62,230 nt of DNA. Origin: a virus (Duplodnaviria > Caudoviricetes). The position numbers and the translations under genes are program-made. Shown one piece after another: positions 4,794 through 62,230 of this stretch. How positions within the stretch are numbered: the first letter of the stretch is position 1; each line of letters starts with the position of its first letter. Location: the IMG/VR virus record IMGVR_UViG_3300014501_000019, positions 1 through 62,230 of that record. The stretch is one strand, 5' to 3'. A model generated the notes under the pieces. The model had not been told where the DNA came from, did not search any database, and worked only from the letters and a program-made list of their open reading frames with translations.

Positions 4794-4794
4794 A

Positions 4795-27712: not shown

Positions 27713-28528
27713 TTATTTTAATTTAATTCCTAAGCTTTTTAAATATTCTTCGTTTGCAAGTATCACGGGCTGAACCGTTTTGAAAAAATCAAACTTGAGT
27801 TTAGCATCTTTTCTAAACCATCCCTTTACTTCTACAAAAATATTCCATTCTGGAATCCAAAAGTCAGGGGTATAAAAACCAAAAGGAGTTTCGAAGGATT
27901 CTGGTTCATATGTCCACTTTATATTTTTGGAATCTAGATATTGAGCGAATTTTATTTCCCAACCAGAACGCATCTTAATACCGTTGTATTCTCCTTTAAA
28001 ACAATTTTTTACAGAATATCTATTAGCACATTTTTTTGAACAATAGGTATTTTTATATTTTTTTACTACGTTTGGTTTTTGTACATAATTGTTGCCACAT
28101 CTACAAGTCAATTCGATCGAGTTGTAACAATGATGTTCTTTGGTAGGAACCTTAGGCCTTTTCTTATTAGCAATTGTTGTCAGCTCGTTTCGTTTTTCAT
28201 TAAAAATCCCATTACATTTTCGAGAACAAAAATTAGCACTATTTTTTCTATTTTGACTTACATGAAACACTTTTCCACATTTGCAATGTTTTTCTATTTT
28301 ACCCTTATAGTTTGGATTGTTCTTTCCGATAACTGAAGGCCTACCTTTTACCATTTTTAATGTTAGTTGTTTTTTATCAGAAGATTTGTTATAACACCTA
28401 TAACAGTATTGGTAAGTCTTTTTTCTCAACATGTAAAATTGTTGGTATTGTTCTTTTTTACAAATATCGCACACAAAAAGGGCGCATCTTTTTTGTTTTA
28501 TTATTTTTATGTTTTCCCAATAAATCAT
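27713..28528 (-). CDS. PD-(D/E)XK-type putative homing endonuclease with zinc fingers
   Basis: C.CG...FCS.KC repeats; MRSGWE..WTYEP..YTPDF..VEVKG. Confidence 0.8.
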   Translation of the reverse strand: MIYWENIKIIKQKRCALFVCDICKKEQYQQFYMLRKKTYQYCYRCYNKSSDKKQLTLKMVKGRPSVIGKNNPNYKGKIEKHCKCGKVFHVSQNRKNSANFCSRKCNGIFNEKRNELTTIANKKRPKVPTKEHHCYNSIELTCRCGNNYVQKPNVVKKYKNTYCSKKCANRYSVKNCFKGEYNGIKMRSGWEIKFAQYLDSKNIKWTYEPESFETPFGFYTPDFWIPEWNIFVEVKGWFRKDAKLKFDFFKTVQPVILANEEYLKSLGIKLK

Positions 28529-29399: not shown

Positions 29400-31289
29400 T
29401 TACTCCGAATCGTTTATGGAAGTGTTTGTATTTGGCTGAATAAAAGACTGATTTGGTGAAATAGGAGTATCTGGATTATTCGGAGCATCTCTATAAACAA
29501 CGTCTTGACTCTCAGATACGCCAGGCAAAATGTTTGCATTTTTGTAATCAGCGACACGACTTTGATAACCACCGCCGTATTTCATTTCGGGATAAACTAC
29601 GTTGGTCCCGCTAAATACAGATACGCCATTGCTTAATGTAACGGTGGTTCTAAAAGTCTTAAATCCATTTTGATCGATAAACGCGCTATGCATAAGTTGT
29701 TCGATATGATAAACCACGTTGTCAAATTGTAGGTTATCTCCAACTGCAATAGGTTCCGGTAAGCCAACGAAATTAATGGTTCCACTCATCTTTAAATGGC
29801 CACCTATTAACGCATCTCCAACTATCTTTGCCCAACCAGGCGCGCGGAAGTCTCCTTGAGCACTGGTATCAGGAGCCCTATCGAACTCCGATGTAACTAC
29901 ATATGGTCTTAAACCATTTCTTTTCACATCGTCTATATCGTAAATATAATTCTGTCTAGCGGTTTCGTCTGAAATATCGTAACCCGCTGGCCCATTAACA
30001 GATCTACCATAGTACTGAACAAAGTTAATTCTAGCGACCTCATCTTTACCAAGATCAAAACTGAAGGCTAAAGAAGGACTGATATTCCACCTAGGAACAT
30101 TCATAAACTTAGTCACATGGTAATTGGTTCCACTAACGGAAAAGCCATCTGTGGTAAAAGGGATTTGACGCAATACCATAGTTGGCATCACGCTTCCATT
30201 TGGAGCCACTCGAAAACAAGTATAAAGCTCATTAAGAGGGGAATTAGTAAATTGATTTAAGATTGCCCATGCTTTTACTTGATTCCAATATTCGGGTTTA
30301 GTTACGGTAACACCTTCTACAGGATTATTGGTGAACATGAAACGACCGGTAGTAGCAGTAGCAGTTGGTGGAATTCCTGAAGGGTTCATTCCTTGAGCCA
30401 ATGTCTGATTGGAATTACTTGAGTAGTTCTGTATACCAAAAAGGAAGTTGTATGCGTCTTTAGCAGATGTTAATCCTTGAAGTCCCAATAGGTTTCCAAC
30501 TGCTTGCGGCATATAGAAATGAGTATTAGCGGAAAAAACGGTTTGACCCTCTACTTTTCTTCCCTGATCTGTAAGGCCGGTTCCAATAAAACATTGGATT
30601 AGAGCCTGCAAAACTTGTTGAATTACATTTAAGCCTTTATCTGATTGTATGGCTGCCCAATCTATTCCCAATTGGCTTATAAACAATAAAAGGTTCTGAT
30701 CACTTTGATCTATAAGATAGGGGTTGAAATAAATGCTATTATTAAATTCAGTAAAAGCGAAACCAGTAATTTTTACCGCGTATGTTCTTATACCGGTTTT
30801 AGGATCTGTGGTTAAAACTTTACGAACGCTCTGAACTTTAAAAAAACCCTTAAATCCGTCGTGAATGCCGTTAATTGGTTGTAAATTTCTTGCTCTATCC
30901 GCTACTCCAGTACCTGCTGAGTTCCTCACTTGGTTTTCCCAATTTAAAATGTTCACAAAAACAAAATCACCAGGAGATAATTCGGTTTCATAGTTTACAT
31001 CGGTAATCAAAAGTGTGGCTGCCATAGATGGAGTTAAAACTGTCTTGGCATCTGAAACCGAAAGTTGTATACAATCGTTTTCCACAACCAAAGGTGTTCC
31101 ATTAGGAACCGCTCCAGCAATAGTGAATGAATTGGTTACAGTAGTATCTAAAGTCCTTAAAGTATCTCGTTCAGCCCATCTTAGGAATGTCAATACCCAT
31201 GCAGGACTGGTCTGATGAACCGGCCCTTCTCCTGGACCACTAGCATTTGGTATGATACGATGTACGAATGCCGTATTATTAGTGGCCAC
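29400..31289 (-). CDS. Baseplate hub-like protein
   Basis: GTG start 31289 after GGAGG; C-terminal MSGTINFVG.PEPIAVGD..YHIEQLMH..TTVTL pattern; follows the tape measure gene. Confidence 0.65.
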   Translation of the reverse strand: MATNNTAFVHRIIPNASGPGEGPVHQTSPAWVLTFLRWAERDTLRTLDTTVTNSFTIAGAVPNGTPLVVENDCIQLSVSDAKTVLTPSMAATLLITDVNYETELSPGDFVFVNILNWENQVRNSAGTGVADRARNLQPINGIHDGFKGFFKVQSVRKVLTTDPKTGIRTYAVKITGFAFTEFNNSIYFNPYLIDQSDQNLLLFISQLGIDWAAIQSDKGLNVIQQVLQALIQCFIGTGLTDQGRKVEGQTVFSANTHFYMPQAVGNLLGLQGLTSAKDAYNFLFGIQNYSSNSNQTLAQGMNPSGIPPTATATTGRFMFTNNPVEGVTVTKPEYWNQVKAWAILNQFTNSPLNELYTCFRVAPNGSVMPTMVLRQIPFTTDGFSVSGTNYHVTKFMNVPRWNISPSLAFSFDLGKDEVARINFVQYYGRSVNGPAGYDISDETARQNYIYDIDDVKRNGLRPYVVTSEFDRAPDTSAQGDFRAPGWAKIVGDALIGGHLKMSGTINFVGLPEPIAVGDNLQFDNVVYHIEQLMHSAFIDQNGFKTFRTTVTLSNGVSVFSGTNVVYPEMKYGGGYQSRVADYKNANILPGVSESQDVVYRDAPNNPDTPISPNQSFIQPNTNTSINDSE

Positions 31290-33597
31290 TACCGCCTCCA
31301 GAATCAGGAGAACCAGCACTAGGGGCTGTAGTCGGTGCGTGGCCAAAAACTGGTAAAATATTCTTATTAGCGTATGCCGCTCTTTCGCTTTCAGGCAACG
31401 CCATCATTACGGCATTAAGTTTTTTAATTTGTTCTACGAAATTAGCAGCAGCTCCTGCGGCGGGAACAATAGAATCTTTCATGTCTAAGAAAATTTGATT
31501 AACTGCCTTAGACATCTCAGCACGAATTCTATTGGTCTCATCTTCAGGACGACCTTGGCCAGGACCTTCTAGCTGTTTCCTCTTAGCCTCTTCTAAGACC
31601 GAATTTTGCTTCTGAACATCTCCAGCAGAAAGAGCATCACTGTAAGCGCTTGTCAACTTTTGATATTGACCAAGTTCTGGATGTTCTTTTACTTGAGCTA
31701 TATTAGATATACCTAATGCACCTGAAATTTCATCATAGCTTCCAGGTGAAAGCGGGCCTTGAAATCCTATTGCCGAAGAAACTCCATATTTTTTCTTTAT
31801 ATTAGCAAGTCTATCTCTAGCTATGTCGGATTTTTTAAATAGATTAGCTGATTTACCAGTAATCTTATTCTGTGCATTAATAATATCTTCTGGAGTAGTT
31901 TTACCTCCCAACTCTCTGGCCATTGCTATGATTGCAGGATTATCAGGAGTTAACTGATCTATCGGCATGTTAAAAAGAGCTTCTCTAGAATCTCTGCCAA
32001 GTCTACTAATTGTGGGATCTGATAACATCCCTGCGGCGCGCATTGTACCTCTGGGGCCAGTGGTGGCCATAGAAGTTTGTCTGTAGAGGTCAAAAGCGCT
32101 TTTACCGGCTTCAATACCGGTATTGGTTTTATCGCCAAAGAATTTACCAATCTCACTAAGAAGTTGATCAACGCCTCCACCAGTAGTTACACCGGCAGCC
32201 GAGACCATTTGAGCCGCAGTTTCTACGAACTTCCTATTTTCTTCTCTAAAATCGCTACCATCTAAACCAACTTTAGTTCCCTCAGCTAAGATCTTAACAA
32301 AGGCTTCTTTAGTTGTTCCTGCACCGCCCATGCTTTTAGAAAGAGTTCCTATTACTCCTCCAGCATTGGTCATGTCTAAATTTCTTTGTGCTTGTAATCC
32401 TAAAGCCGCGTTTCCAGTTGCGGAACGCGTTGAGCCTCCAGCACCCATAATGGAACCTGCCATACTCATTCCTTGGATATCCTCAAAACCGGCATCGTAA
32501 ATACTTTTCTTAAATGTACCTCTAAAACTTTGGGTGTTAAGTCCCATTTGCCTTTGAAAGTCTAAGTCTCTTTGAGAATTTCTATTATATTCTTCAGTCG
32601 CCAAAACTTTGGTAGGATTTAATTGCTTTTTAGATTCGTAGTTTCTATTAAAGTCTTCAGCATTTTGCTGCGCAATTAAACTTTCGTATTCATCATTTTG
32701 CTGTTTTGACAGACCTGGAAAAATACCTTTAGTAAGCGCTGACGTGGTTTTGGCTCGCATTCTTTGGCTGCTAAAAAGAGTTCCTAGAGATGCGAGAGCC
32801 GTTCCACCCGCTCCTAGCATTCCAACGCCAGTCCAACCAGCGCCGAGCGCCATTGCACCGGCTCCCATACCTAAAGCAGCGGCGGCAGCGGTTTTAGCTG
32901 CATCCTTAGCTCTCTCAGCGGCTTCTTGTTTATCCGCCATTTCCTTAGCTTCAGTTCTCTCTTTGTTGAAAGCCAGTCTTTCCGGTAAAGAACCGTTGTA
33001 AAGAGAAGACATTTCTCTTCCAACTGTTCCGCTAACTGCGGAGCCACCGGCTAAAAGCGTTCTTGAAGGAGAACCTGCTATTTGATTGATACCTTGAATT
33101 ACAGCAGTCGCGATGCCACCTACGGCTCCAGCAAACCCAACACCTCCAAGTTTACCTTGGGGACCATTTGGGAGCGGCCCATTCACGCCACTTTTCTCCA
33201 TCCTCTGAAGTGTTCCCTGTAAAGTTACTCGCTCTTTTAATAAATTATTTTTTTCTTTTTCGTAAAAAACCTTGTCCTGATCACTCTTACGTTCTTGTTT
33301 AGCGTTGTTAGCAAGCAGTCTGCCTACTTCTTCTAAGTTCTTTTTAGTTTTTTGGTACGCTTCTTGTTCAACTCTTGACTTATTTTCTTGCGCTCTAACG
33401 GCCTGGAAATTCCTTTGAAACTCCCGGTGTGCCTCAGAACCGGCTTGGAATGAGGCTCCTGGGCCGCCGGGCTTAGCAATATTCGGAGTGATGTTCATTT
33501 TTTTAGAGGCTTGTTCGATCTGAGAAAGCGCGGCTTTAACAGTGGCGATTAAGCCAGACGCGTCACCATCGATCTTGAGTTTTATGTCTTGTGCCAT
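31279..33597 (-). CDS. Tape measure-like protein
   Basis: MAQDIKLKIDGDAS N-terminus; Ala/Gly-rich helical sequence with hydrophobic segments; position in the tail module. Confidence 0.65.
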   Translation of the reverse strand: MAQDIKLKIDGDASGLIATVKAALSQIEQASKKMNITPNIAKPGGPGASFQAGSEAHREFQRNFQAVRAQENKSRVEQEAYQKTKKNLEEVGRLLANNAKQERKSDQDKVFYEKEKNNLLKERVTLQGTLQRMEKSGVNGPLPNGPQGKLGGVGFAGAVGGIATAVIQGINQIAGSPSRTLLAGGSAVSGTVGREMSSLYNGSLPERLAFNKERTEAKEMADKQEAAERAKDAAKTAAAAALGMGAGAMALGAGWTGVGMLGAGGTALASLGTLFSSQRMRAKTTSALTKGIFPGLSKQQNDEYESLIAQQNAEDFNRNYESKKQLNPTKVLATEEYNRNSQRDLDFQRQMGLNTQSFRGTFKKSIYDAGFEDIQGMSMAGSIMGAGGSTRSATGNAALGLQAQRNLDMTNAGGVIGTLSKSMGGAGTTKEAFVKILAEGTKVGLDGSDFREENRKFVETAAQMVSAAGVTTGGGVDQLLSEIGKFFGDKTNTGIEAGKSAFDLYRQTSMATTGPRGTMRAAGMLSDPTISRLGRDSREALFNMPIDQLTPDNPAIIAMARELGGKTTPEDIINAQNKITGKSANLFKKSDIARDRLANIKKKYGVSSAIGFQGPLSPGSYDEISGALGISNIAQVKEHPELGQYQKLTSAYSDALSAGDVQKQNSVLEEAKRKQLEGPGQGRPEDETNRIRAEMSKAVNQIFLDMKDSIVPAAGAAANFVEQIKKLNAVMMALPESERAAYANKNILPVFGHAPTTAPSAGSPDSGGGSGH

Positions 33598-33726: not shown

Positions 33727-33906
33727 ATGGCAACTAAAAATAAAACTAAGAACAAAGAAAATGACAAAGAAATCGAATACTTGGAGAAATTAATCAAATA
33801 TAGTGCCCGCTGTTTAGATGATAAATATGAAGTTCTAGATTCTATTTTTGTCGAACAAATCTACAAACTTAAGAAAGAAATCAATAAAATCAAGGAAAAA
33901 CAATGA
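33727..33906 (+). CDS. Hypothetical protein (59 aa)
   Basis: Read manually (MATKNKTK...); ATGA overlap with the next gene. Confidence 0.6.
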   Translation: MATKNKTKNKENDKEIEYLEKLIKYSARCLDDKYEVLDSIFVEQIYKLKKEINKIKEKQ

Positions 33907-34424
33907 GTTACAAAAAACTTGGTTTTCTATTTGTAATCGCAGCGATTGTAGGGTTCGCAACTTCTATCCTATTGAATCTAGCGTATGCCGATGAGGCCTT
34001 CGTAGGATATGGCGTTGGTATCTTTAGAGGCGCTGATCAATTCTTAGGCCAAACCAAATATGCTAGTATTGGATACCGGGATTTTCTTTACGAAGGTCTT
34101 TATTGGCAAAGCAAACTTGGATTTATTGGCGAAGGAAGTGCGGACCAAACCAGAAAAAGTGGGGGTTGGACCAGTAGTGGATTTGGCTTAGAAACAAATC
34201 TTTCGCCAGTTGAACTAAGAGGCGGGGCGGCATTGGCTGCAATTACTACTCCCGATAGTCAACTTGGAGGGTATTTTGAATTTAATGAAGATGTTAGTAT
34301 TGGTCTGCGTGATACAAGAGGGGATGGAATTGCTTTACAATATAATCACATCAGCTGTGCCAGTCTATGCTCACCGAATTTAGGCCGGGATGCTGTTATG
34401 TTGGAACTGAGTCAAAAATGGTGA
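33903..34424 (+). CDS. PagL-like lipid A 3-O-deacylase / outer-membrane beta-barrel
   Basis: Signal peptide ending AYA; LGGYFEF..SIG..YNHISCA....PNLGRD; terminal Trp. Confidence 0.7.
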   Translation: MSYKKLGFLFVIAAIVGFATSILLNLAYADEAFVGYGVGIFRGADQFLGQTKYASIGYRDFLYEGLYWQSKLGFIGEGSADQTRKSGGWTSSGFGLETNLSPVELRGGAALAAITTPDSQLGGYFEFNEDVSIGLRDTRGDGIALQYNHISCASLCSPNLGRDAVMLELSQKW

Positions 34425-36433: not shown

Positions 36434-36458
36434 ATAAGTGGTGTACTCCCATGTATGG

Positions 36459-36467
36459 CAATCTTAT
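36459..36467 (+). promoter_or_regulatory. CAATCTTAT motif
   Basis: 4 nt before ATG 36472. Confidence 0.65.
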
Positions 36468-36471
36468 CTGT

Positions 36472-37176
36472 ATGAACAAATATACAGATGAACAAAAAGA
36501 ATTAGTGATTACTCTACGAAAACAAGGATTTACATACGAAAAAATAGCTATTATAGTGGGCATCAAAACAGGAACGACTGTCCATAACATTTGCTATGCT
36601 GCCGGTCTTCCTAAAAAACCATATCCTAGAAGAATAGAATATGCGATTGGACAAAAATTCGACTATTTTACTATAATAGCTCCATCTCCAACTATAACTA
36701 CCCATAAAGGAAGAACTTACACTTGTTGGGAATGTAAATGTGATTGTGGTCAAATATTTACTACAACTACAAAGCAAATAGGAAAAGGAATAAGAAAGTC
36801 TTGTGGGTGTCGCAATAGGGATGGTCGATTTAAAAGAGCCGACGGCGATGTGATAATAGCAAAATATAGAGAAAATCACTACAAATCAGGAGCAAAAAGA
36901 AGAAAATTGATTTGGCAATTAAGTTTTGAAGAATTTATGAAAATGCTTTATGCGAACTGTGTTTATTGTGGATCAACTCCTTTTCTCCCAGTTAAAAGAG
37001 GATGTCATGAAAGAAAATCAAATGGTGTGGACAGGATAGATTCAGATTTAGGATATTTTACAGAAAATTGTGTTGCCTGTTGTAGATTTTGCAATCTGGC
37101 AAAGGGAGATAGGACCAGGGAAGAATTTTTGGAATGGATTGAAAGAGTTAAAGCTTTTGAACCAGCTATTAAATAG
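36472..37176 (+). CDS. HNH homing endonuclease with N-terminal HTH
   Basis: GFTYEKIA HTH; WECKCDCG; CVYCG..GVDRIDSDLGY..CCRFCNLAK. Confidence 0.85.
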   Translation: MNKYTDEQKELVITLRKQGFTYEKIAIIVGIKTGTTVHNICYAAGLPKKPYPRRIEYAIGQKFDYFTIIAPSPTITTHKGRTYTCWECKCDCGQIFTTTTKQIGKGIRKSCGCRNRDGRFKRADGDVIIAKYRENHYKSGAKRRKLIWQLSFEEFMKMLYANCVYCGSTPFLPVKRGCHERKSNGVDRIDSDLGYFTENCVACCRFCNLAKGDRTREEFLEWIERVKAFEPAIK

Positions 37177-42938: not shown

Positions 42939-43538
42939 TCAGAAACCGTTGGGGTTGTCAACACTTTTCTTCTTTTTGCCAGAAAGATCTTTCTTAGTTT
43001 TATTCTTAGTTTTATTCTTATGACAAGTATAGCAAAGAATTTGATGATTAGATAGTCCTAATGACTCTCCACCATTACAAATAGCTAAAATATGATCCAC
43101 TTCTGGAGCGCGACTTTTCTCACATTTATCTTTAAGTCTTTTCAAATACCACCATTCGAGGAGAGATAAGTCCTGATCCTCACCTTTACTAGCAGGATAG
43201 CGTTCTTTCTCTCTTCTCAGGACGGCCTTCATAATGGGTTTGTAATCAAATTGGCAGTCAGCACATTTCCAGTCTTGTTTAATCAGAAGAAACTTAAGAG
43301 AATTTTCTTTTTGTGGATAGCTCCAAGCCATAGCTGAATCGGAGCATAGATTAGAACAATACTTTTGATTACCATGAAAAATCTCTACTTCAGCACACCA
43401 AGCACAAAGTCTCTTAGGTTTACCTTTAGCATTAAGCTCGTCCAATTTGATTGGATGGATACAAGAAAGATTATAGGATCTTTCCTTTATGGATTTAGTT
43501 AATGCTATCACTTTGGGATTGCCAGAAGGTTTAAACAT
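42939..43538 (-). CDS. HNH endonuclease
   Basis: CAWC..YCS..C; CADC; EVDHILAICNGG..NHQILCYTCHKNKT. Confidence 0.8.
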   Translation of the reverse strand: MFKPSGNPKVIALTKSIKERSYNLSCIHPIKLDELNAKGKPKRLCAWCAEVEIFHGNQKYCSNLCSDSAMAWSYPQKENSLKFLLIKQDWKCADCQFDYKPIMKAVLRREKERYPASKGEDQDLSLLEWWYLKRLKDKCEKSRAPEVDHILAICNGGESLGLSNHQILCYTCHKNKTKNKTKKDLSGKKKKSVDNPNGF

Positions 43539-43616: not shown

Positions 43617-45227
43617 TTAAGTAATTACGTAACTCGCAGAACCAACCTGAGAGGTAGCGTATCCAGACAATACGGCAATTGCATTTACGGTCTCGGAAGC
43701 GGATACGGAGATTGCTCCAGTATATAGAGTGCTATATACCGTAGGAGTCGTTCCATTGGTAGTATAGTAAATAGCGGCTCCGGGAGTGCCCGAGGTGATC
43801 GTAACCGTCTGTGTAGAAGGGTAGGATCCACCAACAGGACTGAAAGCGGGGCGACCTACTTGAGAAGAAACAGGAGCTAATACTGTAGTAACAACTGCAC
43901 CACTGGCACTAGAGAATGCTTCAGCCATAACCGGCGTTTCAGGACCACTCGAAGGAGCGATAACGTTCGCGGCAGCACTAAGAGTAACGGCTCCAGTCAA
44001 AGCGATTAATGAACCATTCACGGTTCCACCAAGAGTATCGGTGATACTGGCTTGAGCGATGATGTTACCTTGAAAGGTGCCAGCGCTCCCTGAATTGATG
44101 GTTGCAGATGAACCAACGATCCAGTAGATGTTGGCAGAAGTAGCCCCGTTTTCAAGAGTCATGACAGGAACACCTCCAGCACCAGTAGTAAGTGTGGAAG
44201 CAGTATATAGGATATACGTGCCTGCACCATTAAAAGTTAGGGTTCCTGTAGCAGAAGTAGCTAGATGTGCAGCTCCTCCGGTGAACTGATAATTCCCAGG
44301 TGTGAGTGTTTGACCGTCTAGAGTTGCTGAAATCGTGGTACCAGCTAGACCAAGAGTTTGTTTGGAGGTAAACGAAGCTTGTGCTGCGGTTTGGGCAGAA
44401 GAAGCTACGCCGTCCGCGATATGCTCGCCACCAGTATAAGTACCAGGAGGGAAGCCAGTAATACTCGTCCCAGGATAGATGCCAAGATCTCCAGTAAGAA
44501 CGCTTGAACCCGTATTGGTGACTGCAGAGGCGCCCAAGATAGCGAAGGCACCCATTCCACCGCTAGAGGCGTTCATGGCTGCAACTGTCTTAGTGGCAAC
44601 TGCTGAAGCCGAATCACTGCTAAGAATGGTTACTTCGATCCCGGTAAAGCCAGCTGGAGCTGGGTCGGTATTTGAACCGCCTGAAACATTATACCAAATG
44701 TAGTAAGAATTAGAATTACCGCCAGTAAATATTTCAAAGTACTCACCTGCACCAGTAGATGCGAAGGCAGAACCTGCGGGGAAAGTCATCAAATCCCACT
44801 GCTGACGAGCGGGACCTTGAAATTGAACAGATGAACTAAATCCGGAAGGCATCGTTACATTAACTGGCGAGCCGTTAAAATACGCATTTGGAAAAGAGTT
44901 GGGCACCGTTGGGGGTAAAAAGTTTGGAAAAATAGGAGCTTGGACACCGCCAGCTAGAGCGTTAAGCAGTTCTTTTAGACTAGCATCTGGAAGACTGAAG
45001 CCGTCTTTTACAAACTGAACGTCAAGAGGACTAAGTGCGTAGGTTCCAAGAATACAGGCTTGAAAATTACTGGCCATACTAGGACGACCAAGACAGTCGG
45101 TCAGTCTAGTAAAATCAATGGAAGAAAGTGTGGTTTCTTGGGCAATGGCGGAAACGAGGTTGAGACCTGAAGTGGTGCTGCCCATTCCGCTGATAAGATA
45201 AGCTTGAGTAGTTGAAGATAAAGACAT
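43617..45227 (-). CDS. DUF3494 ice-binding-like protein with C-terminal Ig-like (chitobiase/Fn3-associated) domain
   Basis: FAILGASAVTNTG..GDLGIYPGTSITGFPPG..LTPGNY..NIYWIVGSSAT..GNIIAQASIT (~43960-44560); PAFSPVGGSY..IYYTTNGTTPT..LYTGAI (~43620-43860). Confidence 0.85.
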   Translation of the reverse strand: MSLSSTTQAYLISGMGSTTSGLNLVSAIAQETTLSSIDFTRLTDCLGRPSMASNFQACILGTYALSPLDVQFVKDGFSLPDASLKELLNALAGGVQAPIFPNFLPPTVPNSFPNAYFNGSPVNVTMPSGFSSSVQFQGPARQQWDLMTFPAGSAFASTGAGEYFEIFTGGNSNSYYIWYNVSGGSNTDPAPAGFTGIEVTILSSDSASAVATKTVAAMNASSGGMGAFAILGASAVTNTGSSVLTGDLGIYPGTSITGFPPGTYTGGEHIADGVASSAQTAAQASFTSKQTLGLAGTTISATLDGQTLTPGNYQFTGGAAHLATSATGTLTFNGAGTYILYTASTLTTGAGGVPVMTLENGATSANIYWIVGSSATINSGSAGTFQGNIIAQASITDTLGGTVNGSLIALTGAVTLSAAANVIAPSSGPETPVMAEAFSSASGAVVTTVLAPVSSQVGRPAFSPVGGSYPSTQTVTITSGTPGAAIYYTTNGTTPTVYSTLYTGAISVSASETVNAIAVLSGYATSQVGSASYVIT

Positions 45228-45465: not shown

Positions 45466-46005
45466 TCATATGAGTCCTAAAATTTTATTAGTAACAGCAA
45501 ATTCTCCGAAAAGGATAATGGCTGCCTCATCATGTGCTTTAGCTGCTTCTATTTTAGTGTGATAGGTCCCTAATACAATTTGTTTCCCATTTTTATAGAT
45601 ATGGGCTCTCCATTTTTTGGTCCTATTTTTATCTGATCTATACGATACACCTTTATATCCAGACGTGTTATCCGATCGGATTCCGACATTGGCAGCATTA
45701 GATTGTTTATCGGCACATCTTAAATTGTCCCATTTATTATTAGACCTATTTCTATCCTCATGATCCACATGGGCAGGAATTGTTCCTGTTATGTATAAGA
45801 AAGCCAATCTATGAGCCCTATAATGTTCTCCGTCTATACCAATCATAACGTATCCTTCGCTACCACCATAAGTCGGCGTATAGCCCGCAATTGTACCGGC
45901 TTCATGCTGATTGTTTTTAGACGAACGTGTCCATACAAAATCCCCTGTTAGTGGATCATAATATAATATGGATTTTAAATATTCTTGAGTTATAATTTTA
46001 GGCAC
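45466..46005 (-). CDS. HNH-AP2 homing endonuclease
   Basis: YRAHRLA..VDHEDRNRSNNKWDNLR; SGYKGVS..WRAHI..LGTY..EAAKAHDEAA. Confidence 0.9.
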   Translation of the reverse strand: MPKIITQEYLKSILYYDPLTGDFVWTRSSKNNQHEAGTIAGYTPTYGGSEGYVMIGIDGEHYRAHRLAFLYITGTIPAHVDHEDRNRSNNKWDNLRCADKQSNAANVGIRSDNTSGYKGVSYRSDKNRTKKWRAHIYKNGKQIVLGTYHTKIEAAKAHDEAAIILFGEFAVTNKILGLI

Positions 46006-51542: not shown

Positions 51543-52109
51543 ATGAAAGGCGCAAGAAGTTTAACAGATCAAGAAATAACGGATGTCTATAACTCATTGA
51601 AATCTTTGAGAGATAAGGCATTTTTCTGGCTAGGCATAAAATGCGGGTTAAGAATAAGTGAAATACTTTCTTTACAGATCAAGGATGTCATGGAGTATGG
51701 AGAAGTTGGAAGTCAGGTAAAGGTAAGAAAAAACAATACCAAGGGTAAAATAGAAAGCAGGACTTTGCCACTGACAGAAAGTGCGAAACGAGTATTGAAA
51801 ACGTATATTGATAGTTTATGGAAAGCCGTGCCCGATGATATGCTGTTTAAGTCAAACCAAAGTAAAGAGGCTATCACAGTAAGGCAAGCCAATAGAATTC
51901 TTAAGGAAGCGTTCAACCAATTAAAGTTGCAGGGAAATTGCAGCTCACATAGCCTAAGAAAGAGTTATGCCCACAGAGTCCATAAGGCGTTGGGCGAAAA
52001 GATTGAAAAGACGCAGATAGCAATGGGGCATAAAAGTCTGAGTTCGACGGTAAGCTATATTCAGGTAAATAGGGAAGAAGTAGATCAGGCGATCTTGGGG
52101 ATGGGATAA
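51543..52109 (+). CDS. Tyrosine recombinase, catalytic domain only
   Basis: GLRISE (R), TKG (K), HSLRK (HxxR), MGH..STVSY (H, Y); AGGAGG RBS; 188 aa. Confidence 0.92.
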   Translation: MKGARSLTDQEITDVYNSLKSLRDKAFFWLGIKCGLRISEILSLQIKDVMEYGEVGSQVKVRKNNTKGKIESRTLPLTESAKRVLKTYIDSLWKAVPDDMLFKSNQSKEAITVRQANRILKEAFNQLKLQGNCSSHSLRKSYAHRVHKALGEKIEKTQIAMGHKSLSSTVSYIQVNREEVDQAILGMG

Positions 52110-53225: not shown

Positions 53226-53900
53226 TCAGAGCGAAGCGACCACGGGTATTGGAATCTCAAAAGGTGGAATGCTTTCGTCGATGTTGTGAAGAAGCTTGTA
53301 GGCTAGCCATTCTTCTGGAGACTTTGCATTCTTCTGGATATTATATATCCCCCACATGGGTTTTATATTTGTAAAATGAAAATATTTATATAACTCTTCT
53401 TCTGTTTTAGCGTTGGAAAGAGAAATTGTATGATCTAAATGCCATTCACCGTGATTGTCCCAAGTCATTCCTGGTTGAAATAGGGATTCTAGATAGACAG
53501 TTAGTTCGTAAATAGAACATCCTAAGTATTTGGCATAATCGCATGAATTATTAAACCTACCTTTTTTAAGAGCAGAATTTAGTCTAGATCTTAAAGTATT
53601 TTTCAATCTAACTATGGTATTTTTAGGTTTGTAGGCTTTTGTTTTATTAACAGATTTTTTACGCCTGACTCGGGGAGTAAACTTATGATCTTTGAAAAAT
53701 ACAGGTATTTTTCTTTCCCTTCGTTTTTCTTTAATCTTGTCCTTGTTTAACATACGCCTTTTGCTGTCATAATCACGTTCACAAACTCTACAAATATAAT
53801 AAGATTTTACACTCTCATGTTTATCCCTGTATTGCCTAAAATCTGTTTGGTTCTTTTCAGTCAAACACTGATTACATATTTTATTACTCAAATCGCTCAT
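53226..53900 (-). CDS. HNH-type homing endonuclease (paralog of 4038-4793)
   Basis: CNQC..CRVC; YLESLFQPGMTWDNHGEWHLDH..HFTNIKPMW..N..K. Confidence 0.85.
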   Translation of the reverse strand: MSDLSNKICNQCLTEKNQTDFRQYRDKHESVKSYYICRVCERDYDSKRRMLNKDKIKEKRRERKIPVFFKDHKFTPRVRRKKSVNKTKAYKPKNTIVRLKNTLRSRLNSALKKGRFNNSCDYAKYLGCSIYELTVYLESLFQPGMTWDNHGEWHLDHTISLSNAKTEEELYKYFHFTNIKPMWGIYNIQKNAKSPEEWLAYKLLHNIDESIPPFEIPIPVVASL

Positions 53901-54606
53901 ATTATATATGTTATATCATAAGATTTTTATAGAAAAATTTTTAATGATATTAATAAGTTACGTTCATTAATTCTTTAAAATTCTGGAAAAATTTTAAAGT
54001 TGTTATTACGGTCGTGTGAATAAATGTAACTATATGGGCCTTCAGTTTGGCCATGTCTATTAGGACCCGGTTCATGAAATATATGTCTAACCTTTTGTAA
54101 TCATTGACTTATTTGGATTGGCATGTTCTATGATGCCGATACGTGACACATGCACGCGGACATAGGTGATGACTCATGTCAGGGCAGACATTTTGCATTA
54201 GCAATGCCGATGCCATACAACTTAACTAATGCATACGCGGGTTTATAGCGCAACGCGTTATAGGCCGATGCTATGGCCATGGCTTACCCTGCGTTGTCCA
54301 CTGGCGCCGATCCTAGACAGTCTGCTAGTGAATTTCGAATACCTATAAGGTACGATACAGCATGACCTGACTGGCGCATTGACTCCAATGGGCGCCATTG
54401 ATACTAACTATATGAGATTATTAAATTTAGTTTGATTCGTGACTTCTTTTACTCTTTCGGGACACTGGCATTTTGAAACACAAATGCCCTGCAACGGATG
54501 CTCCGCGCAAGGCGATTGACTATTTATTTTTCTAATGCTATAAAAGCGAGGGATAATACTAGCTATGTATTAATCCCTCATTGTAAAGATTGAACTACTT
54601 AACTAG

Positions 54607-55059
54607 TTATTTTGATTTGTGTTTTTCTATGTATTTGATAGCATTAGCTAATATACTGGAGTCTTCTAAGAAGATGCCTAATCCCGTGTTACATCTGCGA
54701 CACAGTAATCCGCGTACCACTATTTCGCCTGTTTTCTCTTCTATCGTATGGTCATGGTCAACCATTAGCTGCAATCGGCGCCCCGTTTTCTTTCGAATGC
54801 CCGTTTCGGGTAGTTCACAAATAGAGCAGTTACCATTTTGTGATTTCAATACTTCGTTGTATCTCTCTAATGTTATTCCATAATGATGCTTGTAATGAGT
54901 ATCACGGTATAGATCGGGATTCTTTAATGGGTATGCCCTGCGTTTAGTGCTATGACAGACCTTGCAATAAGTACTTAAGCCGTCATTCTTTCGACGTTCT
55001 TTATTGAATAGTTCTATTGGTTTAGTCTCATTACAGCAACTGCATTGTTTATGTGTCAT
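54607..55059 (-). CDS. Endonuclease VII-like homing endonuclease
   Basis: YGITLERY..QNGNCSIC..VDHDH..VRGLLCRRCNTGLG. Confidence 0.88.
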   Translation of the reverse strand: MTHKQCSCCNETKPIELFNKERRKNDGLSTYCKVCHSTKRRAYPLKNPDLYRDTHYKHHYGITLERYNEVLKSQNGNCSICELPETGIRKKTGRRLQLMVDHDHTIEEKTGEIVVRGLLCRRCNTGLGIFLEDSSILANAIKYIEKHKSK

Positions 55060-55084
55060 AGCGGATTATATCATGCAATACACA

Positions 55085-55177
55085 TATCCAAGTATTAGAC
55101 AGTGTAAACGCCATAGACACTATTTTAAATTAACAGTTGCCATGTCTCATATACTTAGGTCTGGCATAGCCGCTGCA
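55085..55177 (+). promoter_or_regulatory. Tandem upstream element plus sigma54-type promoter, copy 1
   Basis: TATCCAAGTATTAGACA-G-TGTAAACGCCATAGACA (55085-55119); TGGCATAGCCGCTGCA (55162-55177, GG-N10-GC). Confidence 0.75.
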
Positions 55178-55231
55178 ATAGAGTATAAGTGTCAGTAACA
55201 AGGTCATGCGTAAACTGATCTAACCGGGAGA

Positions 55232-55465
55232 ATGACAATGAAATGCGATAAGTGCAAGACTACTGTTGGCATGAGTACACAACATGGCCATGTTAACATG
55301 ACTTTAAATGGCATTCCATCAACGGTTTGCCGCGCATGTAGTTTTGAGATTAGGGATAATCAGATAAAAATTGAAGTATTTGAATTTTCAGGTGAATTCT
55401 GTAAACATGGCCTGCCCATGGCGTTAGGGTATGATATCTGTGAATGCGAGATATCCAATGAGTAA
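55232..55465 (+). CDS. Hypothetical zinc-binding protein
   Basis: CDKC..CRAC..CKHG..CEC; GGAG RBS. Confidence 0.6.
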   Translation: MTMKCDKCKTTVGMSTQHGHVNMTLNGIPSTVCRACSFEIRDNQIKIEVFEFSGEFCKHGLPMALGYDICECEISNE

Positions 55466-55661
55466 AGTAGCTAGTTATAAACATGGCGTATCTTGGATTG
55501 CAATGAATGACAATAATGGCGCATTAGATGCAATGGTTACAGAAGTAGTAGCGTCCTATATTTCAACGATTTTACTTGCCGATCTTTTTGGCAAGACAGT
55601 CGAACATGTCGCTAAAGACATAGTTAAAGCCCGTATGAGAATTGAAGAGTCAACTATATGA
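55458..55661 (+). CDS. Hypothetical protein
   Basis: Coupled ORF. Confidence 0.6.
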   Translation: MSKVASYKHGVSWIAMNDNNGALDAMVTEVVASYISTILLADLFGKTVEHVAKDIVKARMRIEESTI

Positions 55662-55900
55662 CTAAATAGGAATTTACTAAGGCTTTACAGCTAGCGCATT
55701 CCGATAATGAAGTACCTGCATACTTTTCAACTGAAATGAGTCATCTTAAGGATTGCGCGTTAGACAATAAACGCAGGTATGTCCGTTTAGACCATGTCGC
55801 TAGTCTTATTCGTGGACATTGCTTGACGTTTGCCGGAACATGGGATTACACTGAACTTGCCAGTATTCAGGAATGGTCGAAACGCTTTGATTTGATCTAA
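55658..55900 (+). pseudogene. 80-codon ORF with in-frame TAG at codon 4
   Basis: ATG ACT AAA TAG GAA TTT..., otherwise open to TAA 55900; ATGA overlap with the upstream gene. Confidence 0.55.
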
Positions 55901-55916
55901 ATAATTGAAAGAATTT

Positions 55917-56405
55917 ATGAAAATCTCTAATTCCCGTGGTTTCAGTTTGCTTGAAACCATGATTGCTCTGGCCGTCTTGAGTATCCTAGCTATGGCTTCC
56001 GCAGGCTTGATGACCAATATACTTCGGGCTCAAGTCACGGCTACCGTTGATTCAGATATCCTAGGTTTAGTCAGTCAAATGCGAGCGGCGTTGCAAAACA
56101 GCACTACAGCCGTATGTTCAGAGGATCTATCCAGTGGTTTACAAGTAGTGAACCCTTTGAACACTGTGCAGGTCATTGCTAGCGGTGGTATGTCATTTAA
56201 TAATAAACTTTGGAATATCTCCATGATTGGATTGACTAATACCACTGTGTTGAATGGCGTTACTAAGGGGACAGTCGTCATGACAGTCAATAAAGACACT
56301 ACTAGACTCTATGGCGCGCCCCAGTCTCAAATTGTAGTCACTGATATCTATTGCACGACTCCAGTTGCGCCAGTGACTCCCGTTGACCCCTGTGATAAAA
56401 ATTGA
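55917..56405 (+). CDS. Type IV pilin/pseudopilin-like protein
   Basis: Class III signal MKISNSRG|FSLLETMIALAVLSILAMA (Gly -1, Phe +1, Glu +5, hydrophobic helix). Confidence 0.85.
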   Translation: MKISNSRGFSLLETMIALAVLSILAMASAGLMTNILRAQVTATVDSDILGLVSQMRAALQNSTTAVCSEDLSSGLQVVNPLNTVQVIASGGMSFNNKLWNISMIGLTNTTVLNGVTKGTVVMTVNKDTTRLYGAPQSQIVVTDIYCTTPVAPVTPVDPCDKN

Positions 56406-56417
56406 ATTGAGGAAACC

Positions 56418-56675
56418 ATGAAAGTCTTTACTAAGATATATGATCCTGGACATGGTTGGCTGAAAGTTAGCCGTAAAGCCTATGAGGCAAGCGGTTACGT
56501 AGCATCGCGATACAGCTATCAGTCTGCTAGTGGTAAAACCGTGTATCTTGAAGAGGATTGCGACATGTATGGGTTTTTGTTGGCTATTGGCTACAGTACC
56601 TTAACGCGTGTTCGACTCAAAAATGTTTACATCAAAAACTATAGCAAAATCCGTAACTTGGAGCCTATCAAATGA
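56418..56675 (+). CDS. Conserved phage hypothetical protein
   Basis: DPGHGWLKV..YSY..VYLEEDCD motif; GAGGA RBS. Confidence 0.7.
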   Translation: MKVFTKIYDPGHGWLKVSRKAYEASGYVASRYSYQSASGKTVYLEEDCDMYGFLLAIGYSTLTRVRLKNVYIKNYSKIRNLEPIK

Positions 56676-56908
56676 AAATTTACATTGTTACTATTCATCC
56701 GACTAAGGCTAGCAAGTCTAGTTACCTGCTAGGCGCGTATTCCACTGTCAAGCTTGCCCATGATGCAGCTAAAGCCGAAGTAGGCCGCGCCGACGCGTCA
56801 TGGTGGACAAATTACGATATTACTATGGCTACCGTAGATCGTAATGTCGAGCATATTGAGCATAATGGAAACGACCACTATTTGAAGTATGTCGAAGGAT
56901 TGGATTGA
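56672..56908 (+). CDS. Hypothetical protein
   Basis: Coupled ORF. Confidence 0.6.
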   Translation: MKIYIVTIHPTKASKSSYLLGAYSTVKLAHDAAKAEVGRADASWWTNYDITMATVDRNVEHIEHNGNDHYLKYVEGLD

Positions 56909-56909
56909 T

Positions 56910-57098
56910 ATGCATATATACGCTATAACCTTTACAATTGATGGAGTTAGGGATTACAAGGTTATCCAGGCGGCTAGCGGTATCAGCGCTGTAAATTGGT
57001 TGCGCCGCAAGTTGAAAATGGATGGAATTGACTTGAGTCTTTTCCTAGTGGTAAGCTGTAAGCTGGAAAAAGACGTTAGCGTTTATGATCAACTGTAA
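56910..57098 (+). CDS. Hypothetical protein
   Basis: ATG 56910. Confidence 0.55.
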   Translation: MHIYAITFTIDGVRDYKVIQAASGISAVNWLRRKLKMDGIDLSLFLVVSCKLEKDVSVYDQL

Positions 57099-57113
57099 AT
57101 GAAAGGAAAACCG

Positions 57114-57452
57114 ATGTCTAAGCCAATTAATGGTTTTACTAAACAGAAAATCTTGGAAGTCTTGCAGGCTCGAAAGTTTCCCGGACGGGCGATAAGCGAT
57201 GAAAGGGGCGATTGTGCTTACAAGACTGAGGATGGTAACAAGTGCGGCGTTGGCATGTTTATCCCAGATGGTCATAAAGCCGAATCCTATCACGGGTCAT
57301 ATTTGGAAGTAATCGCATACTATCCCGATCTACTAGCGTTTATGCCATTAGATCACGTAGGTATGGGAGAATTACAATTTGCACATGATAGTTCCCCTAA
57401 TGCCAAAAAAGCAATGCTGGATTGGGTAAATGAGAATGTGGAAAACGATTGA
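57114..57452 (+). CDS. Hypothetical protein (paralog of 58092-58442)
   Basis: INGFTK..CAY..GNKCGVGMFIP..LQFAHD. Confidence 0.7.
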   Translation: MSKPINGFTKQKILEVLQARKFPGRAISDERGDCAYKTEDGNKCGVGMFIPDGHKAESYHGSYLEVIAYYPDLLAFMPLDHVGMGELQFAHDSSPNAKKAMLDWVNENVEND

Positions 57453-57600: not shown

Positions 57601-57692
57601 TGTCCAAGTATTAATCGCTGTAAACGCCTTACACACTTATCTTTCTTCACAAATCAATTAATCCACGTATTTAGTTTGGCATCTATACTGCA
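57601..57692 (+). promoter_or_regulatory. Tandem upstream element plus sigma54-type promoter, copy 2
   Basis: TGTCCAAGTATTAATCG-C-TGTAAACGCCTTACACA (57601-57635); TGGCATCTATACTGCA (57677-57692). Confidence 0.72.
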
Positions 57693-57730
57693 ATACTATG
57701 TAATCAGAACGCAGTTATACCGGAGGATAT

Positions 57731-57826
57731 ATGCAAAAACCTGATTTATTTGACTTAATCCTGATCCTTATGGCAATCCTGGTTTTAGTGCTGTGCGCGG
57801 TAGAATTCAACCAATGGTTTATGTGA
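57731..57826 (+). CDS. Small membrane peptide (31 aa)
   Basis: GGAGG RBS; MQKPDLFDLILILMAILVLVLCAVEFNQWFM. Confidence 0.55.
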   Translation: MQKPDLFDLILILMAILVLVLCAVEFNQWFM

Positions 57827-58083
57827 TGTTTACCATCGTGCAAAATGAAAATCGATATCAAGTAAGCTATAAAGGTAAGCTAAGTATTCCCTTTGACGAT
57901 ATCACGGACGCTATTAATCACGGACATCGAAGGGCATTGGCTAGTATCTCTATTGGCTCCCACATCTCTCAACTGACGGGCAGTGGCGAGGAATGGCTAG
58001 TCATTAATGACACAGTTATAGCTAAGATGTATGACGGCAATTTGATGACTGATGTCGTTGGGAATAACGACGTAACTATTTGA
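57826..58083 (+). CDS. Hypothetical protein
   Basis: TGATG coupling. Confidence 0.55.
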   Translation: MFTIVQNENRYQVSYKGKLSIPFDDITDAINHGHRRALASISIGSHISQLTGSGEEWLVINDTVIAKMYDGNLMTDVVGNNDVTI

Positions 58084-58091
58084 AAGGATTT

Positions 58092-58442
58092 ATGTTTAAG
58101 CTTATTAATGGATGGACTAAAGCAACTGTCATGGCTAAGGTCAAAGAAATGAATAATAACACGCAATGCCGGAATGAAAACGGAAACTGCGTTTATGACG
58201 ATGGTAAAGGCAATCATTGCGCAATAGGTTGCTTTATCCCACTAAATCATGGGGCAATGCAGGGAGAGCCAAGCATTCAAGCTATCAAATTAGTAACACG
58301 CTATCCAGACCTTGCACTGTGTATGCCATTTGAAGTAATGTATCTAAATGACTTTCAAATAGCGCATGACAACGCTAAAAGTTGTGACTTAACCGTGTAT
58401 GAAGCCGTCGAAAAGTTTTTAAATGAAAGAGTTACTGAATAG
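58092..58442 (+). CDS. Hypothetical protein (paralog of 57114-57452)
   Basis: INGWTK..CVY..GNHCAIGCFIP..FQIAHD. Confidence 0.7.
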   Translation: MFKLINGWTKATVMAKVKEMNNNTQCRNENGNCVYDDGKGNHCAIGCFIPLNHGAMQGEPSIQAIKLVTRYPDLALCMPFEVMYLNDFQIAHDNAKSCDLTVYEAVEKFLNERVTE

Positions 58443-58517: not shown

Positions 58518-59372
58518 ATGAGCTTGAAAACCGTTTCCCCTGAAGTTGTCCAAGGTTTTGCCGATATCCCCGCTAATCATCCCGGTAGCGCGTCGAACTA
58601 TGGCGTTAGTGGGAGTTACCTGCAAACCGATCGACACGCTATTGTGAGTGATCGTTTCCAAGTGATTCAACCGGCTGCAGTAGGAAACGCATTGTCTGAA
58701 CGTGGTTTCAATCTTGTGTCTTGTTTGACTGGTAAAGCTAGACAAGAGGATAAAACCGATTTTCAGCGAACCATTAGCCGGTATCGCAGCAATGACTTGT
58801 TTGATATCAATGGCTTGTCACTGGATATCATCTATATCGGTAAACATATGGGTCGCGGCTGCGATGAACTTCGTTTGGGACTATATAGGGGAGTTTGCGC
58901 TAATCAGTGGGCAGTGGGTACGCTTTTTGATATGATTCGTTTCCGACACACTGGCAATGCTTTGGATGATATCCAGACTGGAATTGCAGCCGTGCTGAGT
59001 CAACGCGCTAAGCTTGTTGAAACCGTTCAGAATATGCAAGGTAAACAAATGACTGCCAGTGAAATCGAGGAATTGTGCAAAAAGTATGCCGATATTCGAT
59101 TGAATGGCAAGCCTAACGTAATCAAGGTAGACTTTCGGCGCCTTGCTACCGTGCGCCGCGCTGAGGATAGTTTTGCCGATCTTTTCACGGTGGCCAATGT
59201 TTTGCAAGAGAATGCAATCCGTTTCCCGATTCCGTATGATCTTAACGCGGTTGACACACAAGGTAACCCATATGTGCGCCATATGACTAGCCGTAGACTA
59301 CGCGAATCATCTAGTCAATTGGTTGAATTGAATGGTGCAATGTTCGATGCTGCAATGCAGTTTGCCGCTTAA
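58518..59372 (+). CDS. DUF932/DUF945-like phage/plasmid protein
   Basis: VSDRFQVI..LGLYRGVCAN..RFRH.G..DLFTVANVLQEN..LN. Confidence 0.7.
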   Translation: MSLKTVSPEVVQGFADIPANHPGSASNYGVSGSYLQTDRHAIVSDRFQVIQPAAVGNALSERGFNLVSCLTGKARQEDKTDFQRTISRYRSNDLFDINGLSLDIIYIGKHMGRGCDELRLGLYRGVCANQWAVGTLFDMIRFRHTGNALDDIQTGIAAVLSQRAKLVETVQNMQGKQMTASEIEELCKKYADIRLNGKPNVIKVDFRRLATVRRAEDSFADLFTVANVLQENAIRFPIPYDLNAVDTQGNPYVRHMTSRRLRESSSQLVELNGAMFDAAMQFAA

Positions 59373-59447: not shown

Positions 59448-59540
59448 TGACCAAGTATTAGACAGTGTAAACGCCATAGACAGAGTATCTGAAAATACAC
59501 AGAATAATTTATAAGGGTTTTGTTTGGCATCTCGGTTGCA
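59448..59540 (+). promoter_or_regulatory. Tandem upstream element plus sigma54-type promoter, copy 3
   Basis: TGACCAAGTATTAGACA-G-TGTAAACGCCATAGACA (59448-59482); TGGCATCTCGGTTGCA (59525-59540). Confidence 0.78.
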
Positions 59541-61683: not shown

Positions 61684-62230
61684 ATGAAACTAACTTTTAA
61701 ATTGACTTCCGAAAGTATTGTTAACGTCCATGGCGTCAAACTTTATCGCATGGAAGCCATAACGGATATTCCCGCGCGTGGCGTCAAGGCAGGTGATAAA
61801 GGCGGATTTCTATCCAGTGCGGACATTAACGGCAACGCTCGGGTATTCGGCAACGCTTGGGTATACGGCAACGCTCAGGTATACGGCGACGCTCGGGTAT
61901 ACGGCGACGCTCGGGTATACGGCGACGCTCGGGTATACGGCGACGCTCAGGTATACGGCAACGCTTGGGTATACGGCAACGCTCGGGTATTCGGCAACGC
62001 TTGGGTATACGGCAACGCTCGGGTATTCGGCGACGCTCAGGTATACGGCAACGCTTGGGTATACGGCAACGCTTGGGTATTCGGCGACGCTCAGGTATAC
62101 GGCAACGCTCGGGTATTCGGCAACGCTCAGGTATACGGCGACGCTCGGGTATACGGCGACGCTCGGGTATACGGCGACGCTCGGGTATACGGCGACGCTC
62201 GGGTATACGGCGACGCTCAGGTATACGGCA
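61684..62230 (+). CDS. Hexapeptide-repeat (beta-helix) protein, truncated by the window end
   Basis: MKLTFKLT..LYRMEA..GDKGGF then G(N/D)A(R/W/Q)V(Y/F) repeats. Confidence 0.85.
   Translation, partial: MKLTFKLTSESIVNVHGVKLYRMEAITDIPARGVKAGDKGGFLSSADINGNARVFGNAWVYGNAQVYGDARVYGDARVYGDARVYGDAQVYGNAWVYGNARVFGNAWVYGNARVFGDAQVYGNAWVYGNAWVFGDAQVYGNARVFGNAQVYGDARVYGDARVYGDARVYGDARVYGDAQVYG
61831..62230 (+). repeat. 18-bp coding tandem repeat, about 22 units
   Basis: GGC(A/G)ACGCT(CGG/TGG/CAG)GTA(TAC/TTC). Confidence 0.95.

Follow-up and report, generated by a model that had tools for sequence, protein, structure and literature searches.

A predicted prepilin-type cargo gene within a sigma-54-type gene block of a large uncultured phage

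The locus and its phage

The uncultivated virus record IMGVR_UViG_3300014501_000019 contains, on its + strand at 55917-56405, a genuine though highly divergent gene for a type IV pilin-like protein, one of several small genes that follow a sigma-54-type promoter. The DNA analyzed (the window, 62,230 bases) is the entire available record of this virus and is estimated by CheckV to be 39% complete. It is phage DNA, containing baseplate, homing endonuclease and ribonucleotide reductase genes. The features of main concern are as follows.

55067-55119, + strand: conserved upstream element of cassette 1, a candidate enhancer or upstream activator site (repeat family D2, three-way alignment)
55162-55177, + strand: cassette 1 promoter, TGGCAT-N5-CTGCA, with GG at 55163-4 and GC at 55175-6
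55917-56405, + strand: prepilin-type (type IV pilin-like) protein of 162 amino acids (aa), ATG at 55917, matching N_methyl and TIGR02532

The window encodes baseplate and tail proteins, many HNH and endonuclease VII proteins, a ribonucleotide reductase, a dUTPase, and PagL-like and SLT-like proteins, and there are no tRNA genes or Rfam matches across it. A 648-aa window protein (29400-31346) has relatives with 45-66% identity on 15 IMG/VR contigs, several of which are 162-176 kb long and 98-100% complete. Its sole match among 50,697 isolate phage records is in Myxococcus phage Mx1 (28.5% identity, 87% query coverage), and judged by this protein Mx1, which infects Myxococcus, is a distant relative and the only cultured one. 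The Mx1 genome is 169.6 kb with 55.5% GC (PMC10720576), and the GC content of the window is about 36-48%. The public sequencing runs that contain window DNA carry permafrost and peat metagenome labels. The phage itself, from permafrost and peat samples, is myovirus-like, uncultured and large, at about 165 kb.

A prepilin-type protein and its family

The N-terminus of the 55917-56405 product, MKISNSRG/FSLLE (the slash marks the predicted cleavage site, after G8), is followed by about 20 hydrophobic residues. This gives an 8-aa leader (55917-55940) with Gly at -1, Phe at +1 and Glu at +5, and a predicted mature protein of 154 aa with E5; an upstream TTG at 55905 is an alternative start that would add 4 residues. 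There are three cysteines, at residues 67, 146 and 158 of the 162-aa protein. A preliminary description of this DNA, made from the sequence without database searches, had noted a complete prepilin signal here and had suggested checking it against the N_methyl profile with a hidden Markov model (HMM). The signal is confirmed by that profile (Pfam PF07963, 32.9 bits, E 4.1e-8, cut-off 21.2) and by NCBIfam TIGR02532 (29.3 bits, cut-off 16.3), and the product on these grounds carries the complete class III (prepilin) signal of type IV pilin-like proteins.

This signal is the only one of its kind in the window. A six-frame regular-expression scan finds one genuine class III signal, that in 55917-56405, and an N_methyl search over the whole record gives exactly 1 match; a second regular-expression match, inside the 772-aa open reading frame (ORF) 31279-33597, lies in a Gly/Ala-rich stretch and was dismissed. 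As had been proposed earlier, no other pilus or type II secretion system (T2SS) gene accompanies it: there are no pilus or T2SS families among the 54 window ORFs scanned against Pfam, and searches of the window and of four complete relatives reveal neither a prepilin peptidase (peptidase A24) nor a T2SSE/PilB ATPase. Any activity of the protein must therefore use the type IV filament systems of the host.

A phmmer search of 1.84 billion representative proteins returns 33 at E<=1e-3, 11 at E<=1e-10 and 2 at E<=1e-30 (each count including the window copy), the best match having 47% identity over the full length, and further sequence-word matches are to metagenome proteins only, on contigs of 1 to 118 kb. 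The family is small and so far confined to metagenome data, and its globular part belongs to no Pfam family. Alignment A1 contains 27 of the 33 representatives and omits P0016 (2,860 aa, a local match), P0022, P0031 and P0033 (short or partial), and P0024 and P0032 (449 and 486 aa). N_methyl matches 23 of the 27 rows and the Gly at -1 is kept in 25, with leaders mostly of 5-10 residues; the full G/F..E motif is retained in the window copy and in four of its five nearest relatives. In A1 the residues P80 and W99 never vary, and G133, D143, Y145 and a Cys hardly do. Many A1 members (P0002, P0034 and others) carry extended low-complexity tails with much Asp, His, Gly and Ser and a Cys at the end; no such tail is present in the window copy, which with its mature part of 154 aa is one of the two shortest members of the alignment.

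Sigma-54-type promoter cassettes

The pattern TGGCAY-N6-TGCW occurs at 7 sites in the window against 0.37 expected, a number reached in none of 100 shuffles. The spacing is specific: N6 gives 7 sites in the window against 0-2 at the other spacings from N2 to N11, and 64 against 1-5 when the window is combined with fetched loci, which were chosen around N6 sites. Five of the 7 window sites are intergenic, at 54200-54215 on the - strand and at 55162, 57677, 59525 and 61655 on the + strand. By sequence they agree with enhancer-dependent sigma-54 promoters, which have GG and GC 10 nt apart within TGGCAY-N5-YTGCW. In cassette 1 the textbook -24/-12 geometry would put the start site at about 55188, some 44 nt upstream of the first ATG. 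Two similar cassettes follow on the same strand.

57604-57692, + strand: cassette 2, with an upstream core at 57604-57628 and TGGCAT-N5-CTGCA at 57677-57692
59451-59540, + strand: cassette 3, with an upstream core at 59451-59475 and TGGCAT-N5-TTGCA at 59525-59540

The upstream element has an invariant core, CCAAGTATTA-N5-TGTAAACGCC, with copies at 55088, 57604 and 59451 (three against 0 expected) that start 73-74 nt before TGGCAT in all three cassettes; in cassette 1 it occupies 55088-55112, about -100 to -76 from the inferred start site. The sigma-54 and enhancer cassette of the preliminary description therefore stands as a genuine sigma-54-type promoter with an upstream element at a fixed distance. 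No sigma-54 DNA-binding domain and no sigma-54 activator domain (Sigma54_activat) is found in five records, the window and the four complete relatives searched, so that a host activator would be needed. Among the 64 sites, 25 precede a ribosome-binding site and start codon, and TAGACA, CAGTGT and TTAGAC are enriched 6-11-fold upstream of these, each at 6 of the 25. A TTAGACAGYGTA-like box, which is non-palindromic, thus recurs in the clade at 6 of the 25 sites and is replaced in window cassette 2.

A sigma-70 promoter, TTGGCA-N17-TATAAG/TGTAAT, also fits cassettes 1-3 by eye. We set this aside as the principal explanation because the -12 TGC is spacing-specific and the relatives have no consistent -10 hexamer; a dual promoter at the cassettes is conceivable.

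The pilin gene and the cassettes are distributed independently

Counts of the sigma-54-type pattern and of a reversed-pattern control in the window, its relatives and two other pilin-bearing contigs are as follows.

G000 (the window): 7 sites, control 0
G001: 8 sites, control 0
G002: 10 sites, control 0
G003: 5 sites, control 1
G004: 8 sites, control 3
G005: 18 sites, control 1
G006: 8 sites, control 1
G007: 8 sites, control 2
Mx1: 1 site, control 4 (no enrichment)
G008 (other pilin-bearing contig): 0 sites, control 0
G009 (other pilin-bearing contig): 1 site, inside the pilin ORF, control 0

Each of the seven relatives has 5-18 sites against 0-3 for the reversed control, and the sites are strongly enriched and spatially clustered. 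The cassettes are shared throughout this clade of phages of roughly 165 kb, independently of the pilin. The A1 profile finds no family member in any of five near-complete relatives, and N_methyl has no match in the four relatives searched with it; as a positive control the same A1 profile recovers the window copy and the two other pilin-bearing contigs (3 of 3 records). The sigma-54 regions of the relatives contain homologues of window genes 57099, 57793, 58518 (DUF932), 59832 and 60873 (GP88), and none of the genes in 55232-57098, the pilin gene included.

The two other pilin-bearing contigs, of 54 and 64 kb in IMG/VR and unrelated to this phage, encode family members with 52% identity to P0013, with exonuclease, DNA ligase and helicase genes as neighbors, and all three retrievable contexts of the family are thus phage. 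Searches with the DNA and protein of the pilin region give no match in the 50,697 phage records, and IMG/VR scans with the window pilin, P0002 and the exact upstream element return nothing. There is no member in a one-genome-per-species collection, where a weak match to the N-terminal helix only is found in an Acinetobacter metagenome-assembled genome, and none in JGI metagenome contigs scanned with the family alignments.

Because the relatives share the sigma-54-type promoters and do not have the pilin, it is an accessory gene outside the promoter system, and its absence from all five relatives with cassettes means that it is not a built-in feedback element of that transcription program. The pilin gene is a dispensable cargo gene, inserted in one lineage of the clade into a conserved small-gene block driven by sigma-54. 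The locus would thereby mark a cargo slot within a phage gene block that is driven by the sigma-54 of the host. To our knowledge sigma-54 dependence has rarely been documented for phages, and its clade-wide use is a more surprising part of the locus than the pilin.

These distributions bear on a regulatory circuit put forward in the preliminary description, in which the upstream elements are PilR sites, so that early phage transcription needs PilR and sigma-54, and the pilin helix engages PilS, lowers PilR activity, shuts off pilA and ends early phage transcription. Such a circuit would make use of the sigma-54-type promoter, of the host activator that a clade with neither a sigma-54 nor an activator gene would need, and of a conserved element in an enhancer-like position. 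The only cultured relative infects Myxococcus, in which pilA is under sigma-54 and PilR control. TGT-N11-ACA is found in each of the three elements, and cassettes 1 and 3 also have AGAC (GTCT when read on the opposite strand), a loose likeness, involving 6-7 specified bases and noticed post hoc, to the PilR hallmarks "TGT-N11-AGA plus GTCT" quoted in PMC6058289. The GACA/TGTC elements on which the proposal was based are present in cassettes 1 and 3, but they are replaced in cassette 2 and are not the conserved core, and the motif common to the relatives is the non-palindromic TTAGACAGYGTA at 6 of 25 sites. Moreover, the cassettes are clade-wide with the pilin in none of the five near-complete relatives, whereas the two other pilin-bearing phage contigs have no excess of sigma-54 sites. 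Position 22 of the mature window protein is Gly and not Pro; Pro at this position is reportedly important for PilS signalling, a finding attributed to Kilmury and Burrows in 2016. We consider the circuit unsupported and very improbable, and the literature consulted on phages using sigma-54 promoters and on the PilR site consensus contains nothing decisive. A version in which the pilin is both output and brake of a host-pilus-sensing switch is very improbable as well; here a PilR-like activator would fire the cassettes when the membrane pilin pool is depleted, and the mimic would refill the "pilin-replete" signal through PilS, switching off both pilA and the phage early block and removing the pilus receptor.

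Possible roles of the pilin-like protein

There are precedents for phage-encoded pilins. In Sztanko et al. 2026 (PMC12952977), P-FimU proteins are FimU-like minor pilins encoded by prophages of the F10-like group in Pseudomonas aeruginosa, which are incorporated into pili and block tip-binding phages. The same text describes PilA-like proteins in virulent phages and in Xylella prophages, for which an early role against superinfection is suggested. With these precedents interference with pili, leading to superinfection exclusion as the preliminary description had also envisaged, is the best-precedented function, and because of them we favor an altered receptor or a jammed pilus. Of the roles considered, interference with the pili of the host is the most likely for the window protein, at about even odds.

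In outline, the sigma-54 RNA polymerase of the host would transcribe the pilin gene together with its neighbors during infection, the cassette serving as the general expression route of the clade for this gene block and not as a pilin-specific one. The pilin-like protein would insert in the host inner membrane, where, as the phage lacks a prepilin peptidase, the host enzyme would cleave it. Mimicking a minor pilin or pseudopilin, the protein could then enter, cap or jam the type IV pilus of the host or a related pseudopilus. A surface receptor would be altered or removed, and superinfection by pilus-dependent phages, or wasteful adsorption to infected cells, would be blocked.

Several observations weigh against this interpretation. 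Although the N-terminal signal is well kept in A1, the residue at +1 is F in 16, Q in 8 and M in 3 of the 27 rows, and that at +5 is E in 10, G in 14, S in 2 and Q in 1. Glu5 is required for assembly of normal pilins, and many family members therefore probably could not assemble as ordinary pilins. The loss of E+5 fits a cap or poison role, because the E5-less subunits of known systems (GspK-type) sit at filament tips, but it equally fits a role unrelated to pili. The specific NCBIfam pilin equivalogs all score the 162-aa protein below their cut-offs: GspH/FimU (TIGR01708) gives 16.6 bits against 80 and covers the N-terminal 58 residues only, PilV (TIGR02523) gives 12.5 against 52.2, PilA_Myxo (NF041775) 12.8 against 400, and ComGF 24.6 against 80. 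Foldseek searches of PDB and of BFVD find nothing at E<=1e-3. The family is dispensable to the clade, being absent from the near-complete relatives, and ESM Atlas labels indicate that it may be mainly chromosomal, in Bdellovibrionota: the three nearest clusters, with members mostly so labelled, score 0.95, 0.94 and 0.93, and one Uroviricota cluster scores 0.91. The globular part alone retrieves the same clusters at 0.80-0.81, which is rated a lead only, as is the "PilV family" name of the nearest cluster (0.95), an automatic label. Processing, incorporation into a filament and an effect on pili are all inferred steps.

The same losses at +1 and +5 would be expected if this were a membrane-anchored periplasmic phage protein, for example an injection-blocking immunity protein or a lysis or envelope modifier, with the pilin-like N-terminus acting as an anchor or export signal and making no contact with pili. 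The globular domain without a family, its weak pilin-fold scores (below) and the position of the gene among unrelated small early-type genes are consistent with such a protein, but the Gly at -1 in 25 of 27 rows, the N_methyl matches in 23 and the full G/F..E motif in the window copy and four of its five closest family members speak against it, and the predicted structure has the long, kink-free alpha-1 helix plus sheet typical of pilins. We think this explanation unlikely, if deserving of consideration.

With A1 as input, AlphaFold2 predicts a helix at residues 7-61 followed by four strands (predicted local distance difference test score, pLDDT, 88; predicted template modelling score, pTM, 0.75); the fold from the single sequence is poor (pLDDT 47). 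When the model was compared with 48,161 chains by VIA-align, 12 of the 15 top rows were pilins or pseudopilins (GspK/I/J, EpsI, ComZ, PilA4/5 and XcpV) at Z values of 4.0-5.0, which by the program's own notes are common. The confident helix-plus-sheet model and the pilins among the top rows count in favor of a pilin-like protein and the weakness of the matches counts against it, so that the fold evidence is suggestive only. A profile search of PDB sequences finds the N-terminal helices of pilins only (profile positions 2-60), such as that of geopilin (E 4.9e-5).

The structural comparison places T2SS minor pseudopilins at the top (GspK of the GspK-I-J complex, Z 5.0; EpsI, 4.7; XcpV, 4.4), there are weak NCBIfam matches to ComGF, ComGE and GspJ, and the Atlas structure rows include T2SSI and T2SSJ clusters. 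These could point to a mimic directed at a T2SS pseudopilus or a competence pilus, which would block secretion or DNA uptake rather than act on type IVa pili. However, all of these matches are weak and under the family cut-offs, minimal pilin folds look alike, and we know of no demonstrated benefit to a phage, so that this is decidedly unlikely. The minor pseudopilins GspI/EpsI/XcpV and GspK and the minor pilins PilV and ComZ are nonetheless the nearest solved folds (Z 4.0-5.0, with 73-95 residues aligned) and share with the window protein its small size, short leader and F+1; the GspK-type tip subunits lack E5, as do 17 of the 27 family members. The resemblance is limited in that the scores are within the common range and no family HMM is above its cut-off.

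Interference with host pili, the role that we favor, can also be set beside other systems. The window pilin is like P-FimU in being phage-encoded with no cognate machinery and in relying on the host type IV pilus system; for P-FimU the exclusion of pilus-binding phages is proven (PMC12952977). The sequence relationship between the two is limited to the N-terminal helix, and the window pilin differs in belonging to a large, apparently virulent-type phage and in having a sigma-54-type promoter. The PilA-like proteins of that paper are, like the window pilin, the products of pilin-like genes of non-temperate phages, but they are recognizable by BLAST as PilA and the window pilin has no match in the 50,697 phage records. 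PfsE (PMC8764522) and PlzR (PMC11461919) are small phage proteins, not pilin mimics, that bind PilC or PilZ and inhibit type IV pili; the likely outcome, pili shut down or altered and superinfection stopped, would be the same. In P. aeruginosa pilA is controlled by PilS, PilR and sigma-54, and the membrane pool of pilin can signal (PMC6058289). That system resembles the window in its sigma-54 promoter, and the window has a candidate for its upstream activator site, but nothing links the window element to PilR, its conserved core is unlike the PilR hallmarks quoted above, and pilin and cassette are not co-inherited.

Phage-encoded pilins are already known, and what is new here is a family with an unassigned globular domain, present in several phage backbones, and its regulatory setting. 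We found no published description of this family, although related entries may occur among the phage PilA-like groups listed in Supplementary Table S3 of PMC12952977, and a preprint on myxophages contains nothing about the phage clade. Only recently have phage pilins been shown to act as receptor mimics that exclude rival phages (PMC12952977), and the window protein would extend this idea to a new metagenome-only family in at least three unrelated phage backbones. As most members lack Glu5, there is a hint that the strategy here takes a capping or poisoning form.

The gene run behind cassette 1

An unbroken + strand gene run, 55232-57452, lies behind cassette 1, and the pilin gene is its fourth member; the preliminary description had likewise placed it in the run that follows this cassette. 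The other genes are as follows.

55232-55465, + strand: first gene, 77 aa, Cys-rich, no family
55458-55661, + strand: second gene, 67 aa, no family; its ATG overlaps the preceding stop (ATGAGTAA)
55736-55900, + strand: third gene, 54 aa, no family
56418-56675, + strand: gene after the pilin gene
56672-56908, + strand: gene after the pilin gene
56889-57098, + strand: gene after the pilin gene
57099-57452, + strand: gene after the pilin gene

There are no terminator-like sites on the + strand inside 55232-57452; the one site present (55302-55287) is on the - strand. PHROGs and PADLOC searches with the small proteins of the run give no match. The 57099-57452 product (117 aa) has a paralogue in that of 58080-58442 (120 aa), and both match a single gene directly behind a sigma-54 site in the relative G005 (L028 5301-5735).

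Metatranscriptome contigs from one library cover 55329-55633, 55685-55835, 57722-57922, 58650-58879 and 58942-59188, all downstream of cassettes, with none within 54000-55205. This is a weak hint of expression downstream of the cassettes, as these contigs give no strand or start and DNA carry-over is possible; the pilin ORF is not covered by them, which is no evidence of silence. In the DNA run X2, joints skip 54547-55130, 55666-55914 and 56417-56672, which would suggest strain variants without the neighboring small ORFs, but with sides of 21-30 nt only they are not relied on. The first of these intervals, which may thus be absent from a variant in this one run by a joint with short sides, spans one of the endonuclease genes listed below.

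Other features of the window

At least eight HNH or endonuclease VII-type homing-endonuclease-like genes are dispersed over the structural and early regions (4038-4877, 22500-23498, 27713-28528, 36451-37176, 42939-43538, 45466-46005, 53226-53900 and 54607-55059). A - strand sigma-54-like site at 54215-54200 is directed at the endonuclease VII-like gene 53226-53900, and the interval of about 700 bases at 53901-54606 contains no convincing ORF, tRNA or Rfam match. A short integrase-like ORF of 188 aa, 51543-52109 (+), matches part of the PHROG integrase profile only. The gene at 33903-34424 (+) encodes a PagL-like lipid A deacylase domain (E 7.8e-9), which points to a Gram-negative host. Three large proteins associated with the tail or baseplate of this permafrost and peat phage, encoded on the - strand at 4795-8607, 15240-22472 and 43617-45227, each contain an Ice_binding-like domain (PF11999, E 1e-31 to 1e-35). 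Finally, the ORF 61684-62229 (+), which runs off the end of the window, includes 17 tandem 18-nt units (repeats 61740-62225) and encodes a YdcK-type beta-solenoid or bactofilin-like product, with TGGCAC-N5-GTGCT about 13 nt before its start codon.

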